From: Lama glama
Taxonomy: Eukaryota
Length of the DNA stretch: 64,000 nt
Assembly: GCA_028534125.1 (NCBI GenBank)
Contig: CM052816.1
Coordinates: 90,522,001-90,586,000, forward strand
Direction: 5' to 3'
Made by a program: the position numbers and the translations under genes. Within the stretch, counting starts at the first letter, position 1; each line of letters opens with the position of its first letter. The notes under the pieces are model-generated. The model worked only from the letters and a program-made list of their open reading frames with translations. It was not told the origin of the DNA and ran no database searches. Positions 7,721 through 64,000 of this stretch are shown piece by piece.

Positions 7721-7849
7721 GAATATCACAAGGTGAGATTATGGCTTCTACATTGCACAACTGACCCCCCTTCTCCTATTTTCCTGATATTTCCTTTGCT
7801 AGGCTCTGTGGAAAGGGGAAATAATTTACAGTAAAAACACTGATGTTTT

Positions 7850-8414
7850 GTAAATAAGTTCATTTGTGTTTTTTTTTTTTAGATTCCACATATCAGTGAG
7901 ATCATATGATATTTTCCTTTCCTCTGTCTAACTTATTTCACTTAGTATGACAATCTCTAGGTCCATCCTTGTTGCTGCAAATGACATTATTTCATTCTTT
8001 TTATGGCTGAGTAGTATTCCATTGTACATATATGCCACAATTTCTTTATCCAATCATCTGTTGATGGACTTTTAGGTTGTTTCATGTCTTGGCTATTATA
8101 AATAGTGCTGCTATAAACAGAAACAGACTCACAGGCATAGAAAACAAACTTATGGTTACCAAAGGATAAAGTAGAGGAAAGAGATAAATTAGGAGTTTGG
8201 GATTAGCAGATACAAACTACTATACACAGAATAGATAAACAAGGTCCTACTGTATAGCACAAGGAACTATATTCAATAGCTTGTAATAACCCAGGATGAA
8301 AAAGAATATATACATATATATGCATGTATAACTGGATCACTATGCTGTATACTGGAAACTAACACAACTTTATAAATCAACTATACTTCAATAAAAAATA
8401 AAAATAAAATGAAG
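7850..8414. mobile_element. L1 insertion with 5' inversion (7850-8118 minus, 8115-8414 plus)
   Basis: Two adjacent pieces of L1 3' sequence lie in opposite orientation, with an AATAAA/A-tail at about 8390-8410 and an imperfect TSD aaaaacactgatgtttt / aaaactcactaatgtttt. Confidence 0.88.
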
Positions 8415-9149: not shown

Positions 9150-9640
9150 CATTTCTCAGCCATAAAAAAGAATGAAATAATGCCATTTGCAGCAACGTGG
9201 ATGGAGCTGGAGATGATCATACTAAGTGAAGTAAGTCAGACAGAGAAAGACAAACATAACACGATATGACTTACATGTGGAATCATTTTTAAAAAATGAC
9301 ACAAACGAACTTATTTACAGAATAGAAATAGACTCACAGATGTAGAAAACAAATTTATAAAGTTACCAAAGAGGAAAGGGGGGAAAAACTTAGGAGACTG
9401 GGATTAACATATACACACTTCTATATATAAAATAGATAAAGAAGGACCTACTTATATATGTTTCTGTAGAGCAGAGGGAACCATATTCATTATCTTGTAA
9501 TAACCTATAATGGAAAAGAATCTGAAAAAGTGTATCTCTCTATATATGTATATGTATAACAGTCACTTTGCTGTACACCTGAAACTAACACAACATTGTG
9601 AATCAGCTCTACTTCAATTTAAAATAAACTATTTTAAAAA
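9150..9640 (+). mobile_element. 5'-truncated L1 3' end, next to a MER5-like fragment (about 9045-9140)
   Basis: ctcagccataaaaaagaatgaaataatgccatttgcagcaacgtggatgga...acacctgaaactaacacaacattgt followed by an A-rich tail. Confidence 0.88.
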
Positions 9641-11301
9641 AGAAGCAATTCAAGCTTTTAGGATCAATAACTTAGAAAGTCAGGCTTACAAAAGACAATA
9701 TAAACCTGCAAGATTTCTAGCTCTGGAGTCCTGAAAATTTTTCTTGTACCGCTGGACTTACTTTTATATTCATGCATGTTCATTGTGTTACTAATATTTT
9801 AACATCAAAAAAGTAGAAAAATGTAAAAGGTGAGATTTTTTTTTTAAGTGTAAATCCTGATATTTGCTTCCCACACCCAAAGAAATCCTCCGGCTTCCCC
9901 ACACTCAGCCTTATGCACACATCCCATTTGGGGACCATGTGCCTCTAGGCAAGGACAGAGAACAGCATAAAGGGATAAAGTCTACAAGAGGAGTCTATGT
10001 TATGAAGAAAGGGTGGCCAATGGAGGGAGACACTTTTAAATGGAGGTCATTGTTTATCCTTCCTCTTAGCTTGCTTCTCTGGGCTGCAGTTTAGTTTGAG
10101 CATTCTTACAGCTTTCTCAGGATTATGAAAAAAATATTATTAAAAATTCACTCAAATAATGGAAGAGCTATTCCTTTAGGAACTGATGTGAAAGCAGACT
10201 TCTGTGGATTACTTGAAAGAAAAACATTGGATTGAGATCCTGATCCTCATAGGCCAGGCTAACACTTTTGAGATATTAAATGATTTTTTCCCCTCCAGTG
10301 TGTTTCCCTTTTCTTTCCCAAACTCTTGGCACCTTGCTCCATCCCACGCCGTTCTAACGAAGCTCTGTTTGCATGAGTTGAGAAGCTCAGAGCTTTTCGT
10401 TTCCTAAAGACTGATTTCCAAACCAAAGCAAAGTTCCTTCAGAATTGATGTGAAGAGTAGTGCAAAATGATAGAAGGAAATCCCTGGCAGAAATATGCCT
10501 GAGGTAGAAAGGATTTCTCCCCGAAGACTATAGAACAATCTCTCTAGGTTAGGGAAGTGAGGGGACATCGAAGGAAAAAGATTTGGGGATCCCGATTGAA
10601 AGGGCCAGCCATGGAGTGGCCATGTGCACAAGAGGAAGGGATGCAAAGAGCTTTCCTTGACCCCCAGCAGTTTGAGGGCAACTGAGTGATCCACCTTCTA
10701 CAGACTCTACTGCCACCACTCCTTAAGCAACACCAGTGCCCAAGGACAGGGCTGCTGTCCCTCCCTTCCTCATCCTGTGATGACCTCCCTCACTAGCAGC
10801 CAGTTCATCTCTGATGGCCACCCAGCAGGAGGGATATGGCATCCTCCTATAAAACTTTGCTCACACTGTGTTTGTTAAGCTCAAAAAAAAAAAAAAGACC
10901 ATTCCTGAGATCAGTATATCAATAAGGAAGCTTCTGAACAGAAGCTGCTCCAAGACCCCTGTAACTGACACAGAGGTTGCAACACTGCAGGCTTTTGCAC
11001 ACACATCTGCCTACATGCGGTCCTCACTGCTCTTCTACCATGGGCGTGCAATGGCCAATCAATTCAAAATTTTTAAATATATCAACAAATACTTCTAACT
11101 TTTCCCCTTCCTCCTGGTATGTCCTCACCATCACCTAAAAAAAAAAAGTGCTGGGGCAAGAAAAACTCTTGTACAGTGATCTCAACAAGCTTTGGAAACC
11201 ACAAAATCAAAACTACATCACATATCTCTGTCATCATCCAATAAGCTAAGACACCAAGATGATTCAGTGACACATAAGCAAGAAAGGTAGGAGTTACCCA
11301 T

Positions 11302-38715: not shown

Positions 38716-39700
38716 CCCTCATATAACTTAATAAGAAAAAAACAAACAACCCAATCCAAAAATGGGCAGAGGACCTAAATAAGCAATTCTCCAATGAAGA
38801 CATACAAATGGCCAACAGGCACATGAAAAAAATTTTCAATATTGCTAATTCTCAGAGAAATCCAAATCAAAACTACAATGAGGTATCACCTCACACCCGT
38901 CAGAATGGCCATCATTCAAAAGTCCACAAACAATAGTTGCTGGAGAGGCTGTGGAGAAAAGGGATGATGATGGGAATGGTGCAGCTGTTATGGAAAACAT
39001 TACGGAGATTCCTCAAAAGACAAAAAATAGACTTACCATATGATCCAGGAACCCCACACTTGGGCATATAGCAAGAGGAAACCTTAATTCAAAAAGTTAC
39101 ATGCACCCCAATGTTCATAGTAGCACTATTTACAATAGCCAAGACATGGAAGTAACCTAAATGTCCATCGACAGATGACTGGATAAAGAAGTTGTGGTAT
39201 ATTTATACAATAGAATACTACTCAGCCATAAAAAATAATAAAATAATACCATTTGCAGCAACATGGATGGACCTAAAGATTTTCATTCTAACTGAAGTAA
39301 GCCAGAGAAAGAAAGAAAAATGCCATATGTTATCACTTACATGTGGAATCTAAAAAAAAAAAAGACATAAATGAAAAAGACATAAACAGAAACAGACTTA
39401 CAGACACAGAAAACAAACTTATGCTTACCAGGGCAGAAGCAGGTGGGAAGGGATAATTGGAAGTTGGAGATTTGCAGATACTAACTAATGTAAGTAAAAT
39501 AGATAAACAACAAGTTCATACTGTATATATATCACAGGGAACTATATCCAATATCCTGCAGTAATTTATAGTGAAAAAGAATATGAAAACTAATATATGT
39601 ATGTTCTGTATGACTGAAGCATTATGCTGTACACCAGAAATTGACACATTATAAACTGACCATACTTCAATAAAAATACATATATATATATAAAAATTTT
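38716..39700 (+). mobile_element. About 1-kb 5'-truncated L1 (end of ORF2 plus 3'UTR), relatively young
   Basis: aaacaacccaatccaaaaatgggcagaggacctaaat...aaactacaatgaggtatcacctcacacc...cttcaataaaaa. Confidence 0.93.
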
Positions 39701-45729: not shown

Positions 45730-45976
45730 TTTTTTTAAAGTAATTTTTTATTGAAATGTAGTTGATTTACAATGTTAGTTTCAGATGTACAGCAAAGTGA
45801 CTCAGTTATACACATACATACGGGTATATATTTTCTTTTCAGACTCTTTTCCATTATACGTTATTATAAGAAATTGAATATAGTTACCTGTACTATATAC
45901 AGTAGGTCCTTGTTGTTTATTTTATATATAGTAGTATGTATTTAGTCCTAATTTAACCCTGATTTTACCCTCCCCA
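45730..45976 (-). mobile_element. L1 3' end
   Basis: ttttttattgaaatgtagttgatttacaatgttagtttcagatgtacagcaaagtgactcagttata. Confidence 0.88.
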
Positions 45977-45977
45977 C

Positions 45978-46191
45978 CAGCAAACTCTTTCTGTAATGGG
46001 TCAGATAGTATATTTTTAGGCTCTGTGGGCCATTTGGTTTCGGTGGTAACTACCTAATTCTGCCCCTTCCAGTACAAAAGCAGCCAGATAGAATCTGTAA
46101 ATGCGTGGGCCTGGCCATGTTCCAATGAAACTAATTAGGAACAGACATTGAAACCTGAATTTTAGATAATTTTTACATGTCACGAAACAGT
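45978..46191. mobile_element. MER58-like hAT element, apparently resuming at about 47622-47690 after the ERV insertion
   Basis: gcaaactctttctgtaatgggtcagatagta...ggccatgttccaatgaaact...tttttacatgtcacgaaa, then ttttcagtcctctgaaagtgtgaaacccatt after the ERV. Confidence 0.7.
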
Positions 46192-46289
46192 TGTTAGGTA
46201 GTGTAACGGAACTGAGCACGGGGCAGGGGGAGAGGAAGGGGAAAGGAGCAATCCAGAGACGAGGGCTTAGGCATGAATTGAGGACCAAA

Positions 46290-46791
46290 TTCTCTACCTG
46301 TTTCAACCAGGGGGCAGGTGTTAGCTATCAGAGGTAATGGAGGAGCTGAAGGCAGCGTCTTTCCTGGGTAAGAGGGAAACGAGAGGTATATGGTGCGGAG
46401 AGCAGGGCAGGGCGTTGGTTTAGGAGAATCCCCCTCGCTAGGGGGTGTCAGTCGGGGACAGTGGGTTATTAGATGTAACCGTTACCTGAGTGGTTAATTG
46501 AAATCCTTCTAGGAGATCACTGCTGTCCCTCAGTAAGTAAAAGACATGAATGTGTAGTATTAGACCGTTTGCCTTGTCTCTTACACAAGAGCTCCAGCTG
46601 GAACAAGATGGTTGACTTTATGCTCCCATCTGTAGGCCGTGCTTCCTAACAAGGAAGTCGATATTGGGGCCAGGCAACATTACCAAAGGATAGAAGTGTT
46701 TTCTTTTAAGGGTTTGTAGATTAAAATGGTCCCAGTTGGCCAGTATGCAGCCCAAAGGAATCCCAGCAGGGATAGACTCTTGGTTTCCCAC
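46290..46791 (-). pseudogene. gag: Decayed retroviral gag N-terminus (matrix region)
   Basis: (V)GNQESIPAGIPLGCILANWDHFNLQTLKRK, then a frameshift to NVAWPQYRLPC*EARPTDGSIKSTILFQLELLCKRQGK. These match class I ERV Gag motifs (PLGCIL..W, AWPQY, QL.LFC...GK). The start codon appears as GTG. Confidence 0.85.
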
Positions 46792-47196
46792 CTGAAACAC
46801 AAGGTAGAATACAGGGGGGTTTTCAGAGCTTAGCGTCCTAAGATGAAAAGCCCGTGGACAAGGCTGACGTCTCAGCCTCTGTCCACAACCAAATTCACCC
46901 TGGAGGGTAGCCGTGCATCAGCAGCGCCCAGCGTCCTAGGGTCCTGATTCAGGGATGGAAGCTGACGTCTCAGCCTCCCTCCAGAAAGAGGGGAACGGCC
47001 ACAGTCTTACCGTGTGCTGGGTGTCTCCGTGGTCTGGCTGGAGTGATCTTCTTTAGTTTACCAGTGGCTGGTCACCCTACCGCGCCTTGTAGTCTCAGTC
47101 CAGCTGCCACAACCGGCCCCAGGAGCTTGTGCTCCGCTGGCTGGCCTTGGGGAGGGAGAGGGAAATGAAGGAGGCAAGATTAAGTTTAAGCACACC

Positions 47197-47214
47197 ATCC
47201 GAGTCACGGCACCA
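47197..47214 (-). promoter_or_regulatory. Primer-binding site complementary to tRNA-His
   Basis: Minus-strand TGGTGCCGTGACTCGGAT is the 18-nt complement of the tRNA-His(GUG) 3' end, located 7 nt downstream of the LTR end. Confidence 0.92.
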
Positions 47215-47221
47215 AAATTAA

Positions 47222-47617
47222 TGTTACCGGGAAAAGGAAAATAAGAATTACCTTGGTTCTCAGGCACCTGAAAAAAAAAGAACTTTTGATGAGAGACAAA
47301 AAGTGTGATATAAGCAAGAGTTTTATCAGCAAAGTAAAAAAAAATAATACACTCCCGAGAATTGGGAGCAAGCCAAGCCAAGAGAGGAAAAATGGCACCG
47401 CTTCCGCCTTCGTCCTGTTTTTATAGCCTGGTTTCTTGATTGATTGATTGGTTAATTGGCTGATTGGTTGATTGATTGATTGATTGATTGATTGATCAAC
47501 AACTCAAGTTCCCTGTGCTCTGGTTGATTGACAGCTCGGATTCCTTGCGCTCTGGATTTTTCCCTTCCCCTTACTCTCCCCCTGCCCAGTGCTCATTTCT
47601 ATCTAAACTACCTCACA
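47222..47617 (-). mobile_element. 5' LTR (396 bp) of the ERV
   Basis: The minus strand starts TGTGAGGTAG and ends GGTAACA. It contains a CCAAT/CAAT cluster (about 47437-47497), TATAAAA (47425-47419) and a poly(A)-signal-like GATAAA near 47322-47327. Confidence 0.85.
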
Positions 47618-48135
47618 TAGTGTTCACTTTTTCAGTCCTCTGAAAGTGTGAAACCCATTTCTATTCTATCCTTGATCATTTGCCAACCTTCAGTACTTTG
47701 TTCAAACAGCCTGGACAGACTTAAGCCAGCATGTCTGTGTCCCAAGTATCGAGAGCCATGCCTGACACTTTCTTTTTTAATAAGCACTTAGATCTTCTCA
47801 AACGAATGAATGTATAAGTGATACCAATTTATTTGGGTTTAAAGTAAGAAAATATGTGAAGACATTCTGATGCGTTCAAGGACTTTGATATAACTGTTTA
47901 CTTGCTCATAGTGCGTCATGGAGATCAGAAAAAGACATCGAGGATGCATCATTCTGTAAACGTCGTCATCTTGCGGCTGCACGTTTAGTCTCAAGCATCG
48001 CAATTTAGGACTTAAGAAGCAGGGCAGCCCCTTCACCCAGCCGCTTTCTGGTACAGCAGTTGAAGGGTTTTGCCGTTGCTCTTAACTCCGATCCATCCCA
48101 AATCCCTCATCTCGGGGGTCTTACTCGAACACCAC

Positions 48136-49118: not shown

Positions 49119-49280
49119 GGAGGGGAGGGTAGAGCTCAGTGGCAGCGTGAGTGCTTAGAGTGCCTAAGGTCCTGGGTTCAATCCCCAGTACCCCTATTAA
49201 AAAAATGAATAAAAAATAAATAAACCTAATTACTCCCTCCCACCAAAAAAATAAATAAAAATACAAACAAACAGAAAAAA
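49119..49280 (+). mobile_element. tRNA-Ala-derived SINE (camelid Vic-1 type)
   Basis: ggggagggtagagctcagtggcagcg...ggtcctgggttcaatccccagtacc (A and B boxes) plus the tail aaataaataaacctaattactccc and an A-rich end. Confidence 0.85.
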
Positions 49281-49714: not shown

Positions 49715-49880
49715 AGGATTTCCAGAATACCTGGAAAACTTGTTAAAAGAGAGACTCCTGGGCCCAGCCCCAGAGATTCCAGTTCAGCAGGTCTGGGATG
49801 GCCCTGGAGTTTCCATCCCTAACAAGCTCCCATGTGGTGCTGATGCTGCGGATATGCCCGCCAAAGTTTGAAGAAGCACA
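49715..49880. mobile_element. MER5A-like DNA element
   Basis: cagaatacctggaaaacttgttaaaa...ctgggcccagccccagagattc...cagcaggtctggg...gctgatgctgc. Confidence 0.75.
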
Positions 49881-51066: not shown

Positions 51067-51566
51067 NNNNNNNNNNNNNNNNNNNNNNNNNNNNNNNNNN
51101 NNNNNNNNNNNNNNNNNNNNNNNNNNNNNNNNNNNNNNNNNNNNNNNNNNNNNNNNNNNNNNNNNNNNNNNNNNNNNNNNNNNNNNNNNNNNNNNNNNNN
51201 NNNNNNNNNNNNNNNNNNNNNNNNNNNNNNNNNNNNNNNNNNNNNNNNNNNNNNNNNNNNNNNNNNNNNNNNNNNNNNNNNNNNNNNNNNNNNNNNNNNN
51301 NNNNNNNNNNNNNNNNNNNNNNNNNNNNNNNNNNNNNNNNNNNNNNNNNNNNNNNNNNNNNNNNNNNNNNNNNNNNNNNNNNNNNNNNNNNNNNNNNNNN
51401 NNNNNNNNNNNNNNNNNNNNNNNNNNNNNNNNNNNNNNNNNNNNNNNNNNNNNNNNNNNNNNNNNNNNNNNNNNNNNNNNNNNNNNNNNNNNNNNNNNNN
51501 NNNNNNNNNNNNNNNNNNNNNNNNNNNNNNNNNNNNNNNNNNNNNNNNNNNNNNNNNNNNNNNNNN
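51067..51566. other. Assembly gap (500 N)
   Basis: Run of N. The round length suggests a placeholder size. Confidence 1.
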
Positions 51567-52024: not shown

Positions 52025-52572
52025 TGTATCATTTGTATCATTATTTTAGAGTCTACATATAAGTCATCTCATATGGTATTTTTCTTTCTCTTTCCAGCTT
52101 ACTTCACTTAGAATGATGATCTCCAGGTCCATCCATGTTGCCGCAAATGGCTTTTTTTGGCTGAGTAGTATTCCATTGTATAAATATACCACAACTTCTT
52201 TATCCAGTCATCTGTCAATGGACATTTAGATTGTTTCCACATCATGGCTGCTGTGAACATTGGGGTGCATGTATCTTTTCAAATTAAAGGTTTTGTCTTT
52301 TATGGTTATATGCCTAGGAGCTGGACTGCTGGATCATATGGTAAGTCTATCTTTAGTTTTATAAGGAATCTCCATACTGTCTTCCACAGTGGCTGCACCA
52401 ATTTACATTCTCACCACCAGTGTACGAGGGTACCCTTTTCTCCACAGCTTCTCCAGCATTTATTATTTCTAGACATTTTGATAATAGCCATTATGGCCAG
52501 TGTGAGGCAATACCTCATTGTAGTTTGAATGTGCATTTCTCTAACAATTAGCCATGTTGAGCATTTTGTCAC
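52025..52572 (-). mobile_element. L1 fragment (ORF2 end and start of 3'UTR) lacking the tail, within L2-like sequence
   Basis: cttacttcacttagaatgatgatctccaggtccatccatgttg...ggctgcaccaatttacattc...tacctcattgtagttt. Confidence 0.9.
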
Positions 52573-63449: not shown

Positions 63450-64000
63450 TTACTCTTTGACTGCTACGGTTTGATCCGAATTAGCTGCCGGCGCCTCGGC
63501 CGGTTTGACCTCGTCTGCGGGGGCCTGGGCCTTGGGCGTGGAACTGGGTGCTTCCGTGGCTGCGGGGGTCTCCTTGGAGGATGGGGCAGCCTCAGTGCTG
63601 CTGGGTTTTGAGTCTGAAGCTGGGGCCCCGTCACTTTTCGTCTCCTGCGCGGCAGGAGCGGCGGGAGCCTCAGTCTTTGTGGGTTCCCCTCCCTCCTTGC
63701 CCTTGTCATCCTTGGCGGGGGCGGCGGGCTCCTCGGCCTCCGAAGCCTTGGGGGCGTCGCCGCCCGCAGCGGGGCCCGAGGCGGCCGCCGGCTCCTGCTC
63801 GGCATCCTTCGGGGGCTCCGGCTTCCCCTCGCCTCCCTCCGTCTGCTCGGGCTCTGCCTTCGGGGCGTCTTCCTTGGCTGCCTCTGTGTCTTTCTCGCCT
63901 TCTTTGTCTTCGGGCTTGGAGGCCGCGTCCTGGGCGTCCTTCTCGGGCTTCTCGTCCTTGCCCTCCTTCACCTCCGGGGTCTCCGCCGCCGCCTGGGTCT
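63450..64000 (-). CDS. BASP1: Brain acid-soluble protein 1 (BASP1/NAP-22/CAP-23), C-terminal ~183 codons; the N-terminus lies beyond the window end
   Basis: The open frame reads TQAAAETPEVKEGKDEKPEKDAQ...TEAPAAPAAQETKSDGAPASDSKPSSTEAAPSSKETPAATEAPSSTPKAQ...PAANSDQTVAVKE* (TAA at 63452-63450), matching the known BASP1 C-terminus. The ORF-track start at 63971 is an internal GTG (Val), and the frame stays open to 64000. Confidence 0.98.
   Translation of the reverse strand, partial: TQAAAETPEVKEGKDEKPEKDAQDAASKPEDKEGEKDTEAAKEDAPKAEPEQTEGGEGKPEPPKDAEQEPAAASGPAAGGDAPKASEAEEPAAPAKDDKGKEGGEPTKTEAPAAPAAQETKSDGAPASDSKPSSTEAAPSSKETPAATEAPSSTPKAQAPADEVKPAEAPAANSDQTVAVKE
63480..64000. promoter_or_regulatory. 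CpG-island-like segment over the BASP1 coding exon
   Basis: GC and CpG density rise abruptly compared with the CpG-depleted rest of the window. Confidence 0.8.

Follow-up and report, generated by a model that had tools for sequence, protein, structure and literature searches.

A 64,000-nucleotide stretch of Lama glama DNA, hereafter the window, contains at 46192-47617 an ERV fragment of ~1.4 kb in which a minus-strand LTR, PBS, leader and broken 5' gag are closed by the plus-strand start of a U3. We tentatively attribute this structure, with a probability of roughly 0.4, to one old germ-line insertion of an aberrant cDNA with U3 at both ends, which would have arisen through a template switch from gag onto the U3 of a second genome. 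On our best reading, the element is a rare one-off fossil and not a new system, and a possible origin from two LTR lineages is its one distinguishing feature.

Host junctions and terminal U3 ends

The region 45950-47950 was screened by 194 sampled words in 24 runs, which come from 7 studies and carry the organism labels A-D. Among the runs listed, 20/24 hold 74-83% of the sampled words, and the other four (X21-X24) hold next to none and are uninformative either way. Contigs were aligned at 85% likeness from four of these 20 runs (X1, X2, X4 and X12), one per organism label and from three studies. In all four, the left host junction at 46192 lies inside an unbroken contig, which spans 45950-46250 with 0 differences in X1, X2 and X4 and reaches 46242 with 1 gap in X12. 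The right host junction at 47617 is likewise inside an unbroken contig (47584-47950) in 4/4 runs, with 0, 0, 0 and 2 differences, and both junction contigs stand at flank-level, single-copy depth. Unbroken contigs at both junctions argue against an empty allele in the four samples, and among the 15 joints listed (17 others exist) none bypasses the element or departs at 46258. The insertion is present in all four samples, old and single-copy. Locus-specific gag contigs (46326-46532) were also found in 4/4 runs, with 0-2 differences and at single-copy depth. For the family as a whole, summed depth, a rough measure, indicates several hundred LTR copies and ~6-27 internal paralog-equivalents at a likeness of at least 85%. 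A pattern scan for the U3 start found 0 stretches in viral contigs and 2 in metagenome contigs, both of them chance 26-nt matches without LTR context.

A first-pass annotation made from the letters alone had proposed U3 ends at both termini in inverted orientation, and this holds: the left copy (46192-46258, plus strand) and the right copy (47617-47550, minus strand) are identical in 57/68 columns. Its estimate by eye of ~10 mismatches and 1 gap over ~68 nt turned out to be exact, with 10 + 1 in 68 columns and a blastn E value of 8.7e-14 against the window. The full minus-strand LTR that it placed at the right end is delimited in 4/4 runs by piles of loose contig ends with heterogeneous flanks at 47222 (29-33 contigs per run) and 47617 (31-35 contigs per run), which set the LTR at 396 bp and identify 47617 as a natural LTR start. 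At 47606 lies a further pile (36-42 contigs per run); many LTRs start TGTTAGG, as the left copy does. The latter is a 67-bp inverted U3 start with a natural TG terminus, as defined by blastn against the right LTR and by the contigs. Within 5 kb, the window holds only two other inverted matches, both between unrelated host repeats, and the predicted fold of the element re-finds the terminal stem only.

The element is flanked by CAGT on the left (46188..46191, plus strand) and TAGT on the right (47618..47621, plus strand), which match in 3/4 positions and probably represent a target-site duplication (TSD). When duplication lengths of 3-20 were compared, a near match appeared at k=4 only. The chance of a flank match of at least 3/4 is 6%, or ~8% for some near match when lengths of 4-6 bp are all admitted; at 12% divergence, a true TSD is favoured over chance by a likelihood ratio of ~6. 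The previously claimed 4-bp TSD is therefore retained as probable, on weaker evidence than had been implied. Similarly, processing of two U3 ends by integrase, also proposed at first pass, is still the best reading, with two TG... U3 termini facing outward at real host junctions and a probable 4-bp TSD; it is an event that we infer, and the TSD is imperfect. The intact TG...CA at both outer tips, together with the short duplication, points to integrase at both ends.

Anatomy of the element and its locus

Read along the minus strand, the element runs from the LTR at 47617 through the PBS, the leader and gag-like frames from ~46790 to the inverted LTR start from 46258, and closes with CA at 46192. 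Judged by the TG...CA ends of the LTR and the tRNA-His PBS that follows, it is classified as a class I (gamma-like, PBS-His) ERV fragment. The complete 5' LTR (47222..47617, minus strand, TG...CA) carries a TATA motif at 47425-47419 (minus strand), found by motif scan, and a CCAAT/CAAT repeat in U3 just upstream of it (~47437-47497, minus strand). This repeat could be an enhancer array of NF-Y type or an expansion specific to the locus; paralog depth is nearly absent at 47424-47490, a bin in which repeats are skipped. Seven bases (47215-47221) lie between the CA end of the LTR and the PBS, a spacing that is shorter in MLV, where it is usually two bases. The PBS itself (47197..47214, minus strand) has the same sequence as the HERV-H PBS-tRNA-His primer given in PMC3253121. 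The 5' leader that follows (46791..47196, minus strand) includes a direct repeat at 98-bp spacing (repeat families D3 and D6). Within it, at 46940-47143, the single-copy contigs of X1 and X4 show 4 differences from the window, compared with 0 for the flank contigs; allelic variation, a difference between species or base errors in the window may lie behind them.

The gag-like 5' part (46259..46790, minus strand) was delineated by three-frame translation and is disrupted by frame changes near 46700 and 46480, as well as by stops. We take it to be gag by its presumed likeness to a class I MA, a proline-rich p12-like stretch and an end near the start of CA. Protein searches for gag relatives returned nothing or proline-rich noise only, with no match that supports the label. 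The element contains no pol, and its middle holds no U5 or pol/env remnant. At its left end there is no U5 end, no PPT and no 3' R, the second LTR piece being inverted and consisting of U3 only.

The left host flank (45978..46187, plus strand) is covered by a single-copy contig in 4/4 runs and is presumably the 5' part of a MER58B-like hAT MITE. The right flank (47622..47693, plus strand), defined on the window sequence, would be the 3' part of the same MITE, whose continuity across the site we judge on an assumed consensus. Pattern scans with the MER58-like flank gave 2 hits in prokaryote genomes, by motif match only, and 0 in viral contigs; in plasmids, neither the flank nor the internal part of the element found a match. 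Related repeat fragments, which we take to be L1 3' ends, occur at 45740-45945, directly left of the MER58-like element, and at 7846-8402, 9155-9641, 38829-39676 and 52029-52567. The window further contains a tRNA-derived SINE at ~49125-49200, presumably of the camelid type. At 49726-49843 there is a weak mir-544-like Rfam match, with a score under the gathering threshold, which we assume to be a MER5-type repeat. The sole N run of the window, a scaffold gap at 51067-51566, lies 3.4 kb from the element. The BASP1 coding frame (63453-63998, minus strand; Pfam PF05466, E 2.9e-41) lies 15,836 bp from the end of the element; the ERV LTR is on the same strand as BASP1, ~16 kb downstream of it.

LTR lineages and the inner junction

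The divergence between the two U3 copies had been read at first pass as consistent with two cDNAs. We estimated the family background from 10 paralog rows, each with at least 10% differences and with near-identical rows of the locus and four long repeats of one paralog excluded, and obtained 255/2071 = 12.3% differences. The U3 copies differ at 10/67 positions (P 0.31), which is ordinary family background and does not by itself indicate two cDNAs; the contig break points offer a better hint. They are read here under the assumption of a 31-letter de Bruijn graph, with contig cleaning ignored. The right LTR contig stops at 47584 in 4/4 runs and the left contig at 46250 in 3/4, implying that other loci match 47613-47584 and 46221-46250, respectively, exactly. 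Over 47613-47584, the left copy departs by a gap and 5 substitutions (the latter alone give P 0.035 at 6% per lineage), and over 46221-46250 the right LTR shows 4 substitutions (P 0.11). The first 26 nt of the left U3 carry ~28-53 paralog-equivalents of depth, whose fit is closer to the left start than to the right one. Transversions make up 6/10 of the U3 differences as opposed to about a third among paralogs (P 0.07). Overall, the sequence comparison moderately favours two LTR lineages, with the left U3 probably derived from a sister lineage. The difference in the fourth base (TGTT/TGTG) was considered as a lineage marker and rejected, since it is probably private to the right LTR (contig end 47584).

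At 2.2e-9 substitutions per site per year, the 12.3% background corresponds to ~28 My. At 5e-9 per site per year, the rate used in PMC8605555, it corresponds to ~12 My. We consider the element to be about 12 My old or older.

The inner junction between U3 and inverted gag falls within 46258..46263: on one side, U3 paralogs part from the window at 46257 (17 contigs, X1), and on the other the alignment of a paralog internal contig starts at 46264. None of the 32 contig pieces listed (4173 others exist) bridges it. Here, nucleotide 67 of U3 is joined to gag-like sequence, with an LTR terminus on neither side. As no LTR terminus is present, integrase did not make this junction, and plain autointegration, one of the sources suggested at first pass, is out. 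Similarity to U3 beyond 46258 was rejected (score 0; 1000/1000 shuffles equal or higher). We also rejected a joint of 46244 to 47546 on opposite strands, seen in one contig per run in 4/4 runs, as the true structure of the locus: the locus contig remains identical as far as 46250, and the joint belongs to a paralogous LTR from which a short piece has been deleted. A sister LTR lineage has the first ~66 nt of U3 in common and passes from there into different sequence exactly at the position of the inner junction, as seen from loose ends at 46257 and 47551, and after 46258 the window bears a faint likeness by eye to this continuation. Recombination in the LTR family may have a hot spot at this position.

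Origin and comparison with known systems

In the scheme that we tentatively prefer, the plus strand of a first genome (U3-R-U5-PBS-leader-gag) would have left its template in gag during reverse transcription and primed on plus-strand strong-stop DNA from a second, related genome packaged with it, ~67 nt from its start. Copying of the strong-stop template to its end would then produce a short, linear DNA molecule whose two tips are both TG...CA U3 ends, drawn from two parental lineages, and integrase could have processed and inserted both tips together, duplicating 4 bp inside the MER58-like element. We infer both the timing of the switch and the enzyme behind it. Since it has no 3' R, U5 end or PPT, the insert could never be copied again. 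RSV intasomes are described as assembling on two U3-type ends in vitro (PMC7955051), and a switch by plus-strand strong-stop DNA between co-packaged genomes has been put forward for asymmetric HIV LTRs (PMC9278108). Against a template switch, a single source would account just as well for the U3 divergence as a whole (P 0.31); moreover, the present inner junction may be a later deletion. The stronger statement that the locus is the germ-line fossil of one concerted reaction, in which integrase joined the U3 ends of two different viral genomes belonging to two LTR lineages, appears doubtful to us. Such joining of U3 ends from two genomes is known from the test tube, and, if true, a germ-line fossil of it would be found here.

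The same end structure and TSD would result if two cDNAs had each given a U3 end to one intasome and the host had joined the free U5 ends, forming a head-out inverted dimer from which a later asymmetric deletion left 67 + 1359 bp. This route accounts for two LTR lineages and is helped by the instability of long inverted repeats, but it needs two rare steps, the middle retains no U5 or pol/env remnant, and intasomes normally form on both ends of one cDNA; we regard it as rather unlikely, even though coupling of integrase dimers on two different DNA ends has been described for RSV (PMC7955051). A rearrangement made by the host also seems unlikely. It could take the form of a repair template switch that rewrote the left end of a provirus, of a one-ended aberrant integration with viral DNA copied on, or of two opposite insertions fused by a deletion with a chance TSD. 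The reverse complement of the U5 end and the left U3 start do share 5 nt (TGTTA), and the TSD matches at just 3/4 positions; still, the break would have to fall exactly at the natural LTR start. Had one provirus folded back on itself, the left copy should belong to the right-hand lineage, which the contig-break hint opposes, and two independent insertions must lie within a few bases of each other if the MER58-like element is, as we assume, continuous. Host polymerases are described as extending aberrant ends with viral DNA of either orientation, whereas such HIV ends usually leave large duplications or deletions instead of a short TSD (PMC5041404).

An improbable explanation is that the outer junctions are real and that the assembly of the middle is wrong or has collapsed, for example from a longer inverted dimer. 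The inner junction is indeed unbridged among the pieces listed and a scaffold gap lies 3.4 kb away, yet 20/24 runs listed hold 74-83% of the words of the 2-kb stretch, single-copy gag contigs of the locus extend from 46326 onward, and no joint among the 15 listed (17 others) leaves at 46258. The first-pass annotation had further raised a non-autonomous, mobile family whose terminal inverted repeats derive from LTRs; this we consider very improbable, although old, diverged copies may exist beyond the pieces listed. Among the pieces listed, the left end and gag (46326-46532) are at single-copy depth in 4/4 runs, paralog U3s run on at 46257 as other LTR sequence and not as gag (17 contigs, X1), and the element lacks the 3' R or PPT for reverse transcription; to our knowledge, integrase does not excise proviruses. 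In favour of such a family, Hughes and Coffin (2002) raised the idea of a DNA-transposon-like structure for a HERV-K element, and short non-autonomous ERV1 elements are numerous in alpaca, according to an account (PMC8605555) whose description of them does not mention inverted ends.

If the template-switch reading is right, the locus is a clean example of a cDNA with two U3 ends that could be inserted and fixed in the germ line, and it bears on how strictly integrase requires one U3 and one U5 end, as well as on recombination between co-packaged ERV lineages. Loci with two U3 ends escape LTR-pair finders and mislead dating by LTR divergence. With a human precedent on record, one dead relic of 1.4 kb leaves the general picture unchanged unless the structure recurs. 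If the reading is true and head-to-head insertions or this junction were to recur genome-wide, they would constitute a class of ERV insertion that has been overlooked and whose ends resemble those of transposons.

Among known systems, the llama element resembles HERV-H-type class I ERVs with a PBS-His in its identical PBS, its TG...CA LTR and the order of leader and gag, whereas its LTR belongs to a lineage-specific family and pol is absent. The TSD of HERV-H is 5 bp long, compared with a probable 4 bp here. DIRS elements also have inverted LTR-like ends, but they are unrelated, form multi-copy families, use a tyrosine recombinase and make no TSD. Similar to one-ended aberrant integrations of HIV and ASLV as described in PMC5041404, the locus has one normal end and another that is joined to viral DNA, which in those cases may lie in either orientation; the aberrant ends reported there are usually truncated and accompanied by large host duplications or deletions, whereas both TG tips are intact here and the probable TSD is short.

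Our literature search returned no paper on U3-U3 insertion and none joining inverted LTRs with template switching, and the titles on inverted-LTR retroviruses that it returned did not concern such a structure. The class of ERVs with inverted LTRs is thus little discussed in the literature searched, yet it is not new, as a human precedent exists. This is HERV-K124 (chr4:161579938-161582439, hg19), which is reported in PMC3625200 to have a 5' LTR and inverted, truncated further LTRs with the TSD kept, and for which its authors propose LTR inversion and template switching. For the LTR-inversion mechanism, that paper cites Hughes and Coffin 2002 (Genomics 80:453), on an ERV-related element resembling a DNA transposon. 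Both HERV-K124 and the llama element are short loci with a normal 5' LTR, a truncated internal part and a terminal LTR piece that is inverted and truncated, and in HERV-K124 the original TSD is kept; its outer end would likewise be a U3 terminus. HERV-K124 differs in that it is a human-specific HML-2 (class II) element that has a 6-bp TSD and is composed of three LTR pieces and two internal ones, whereas the llama element belongs to class I and has a probable 4-bp TSD and a single inverted piece of 67 bp that may stem from a second LTR lineage.
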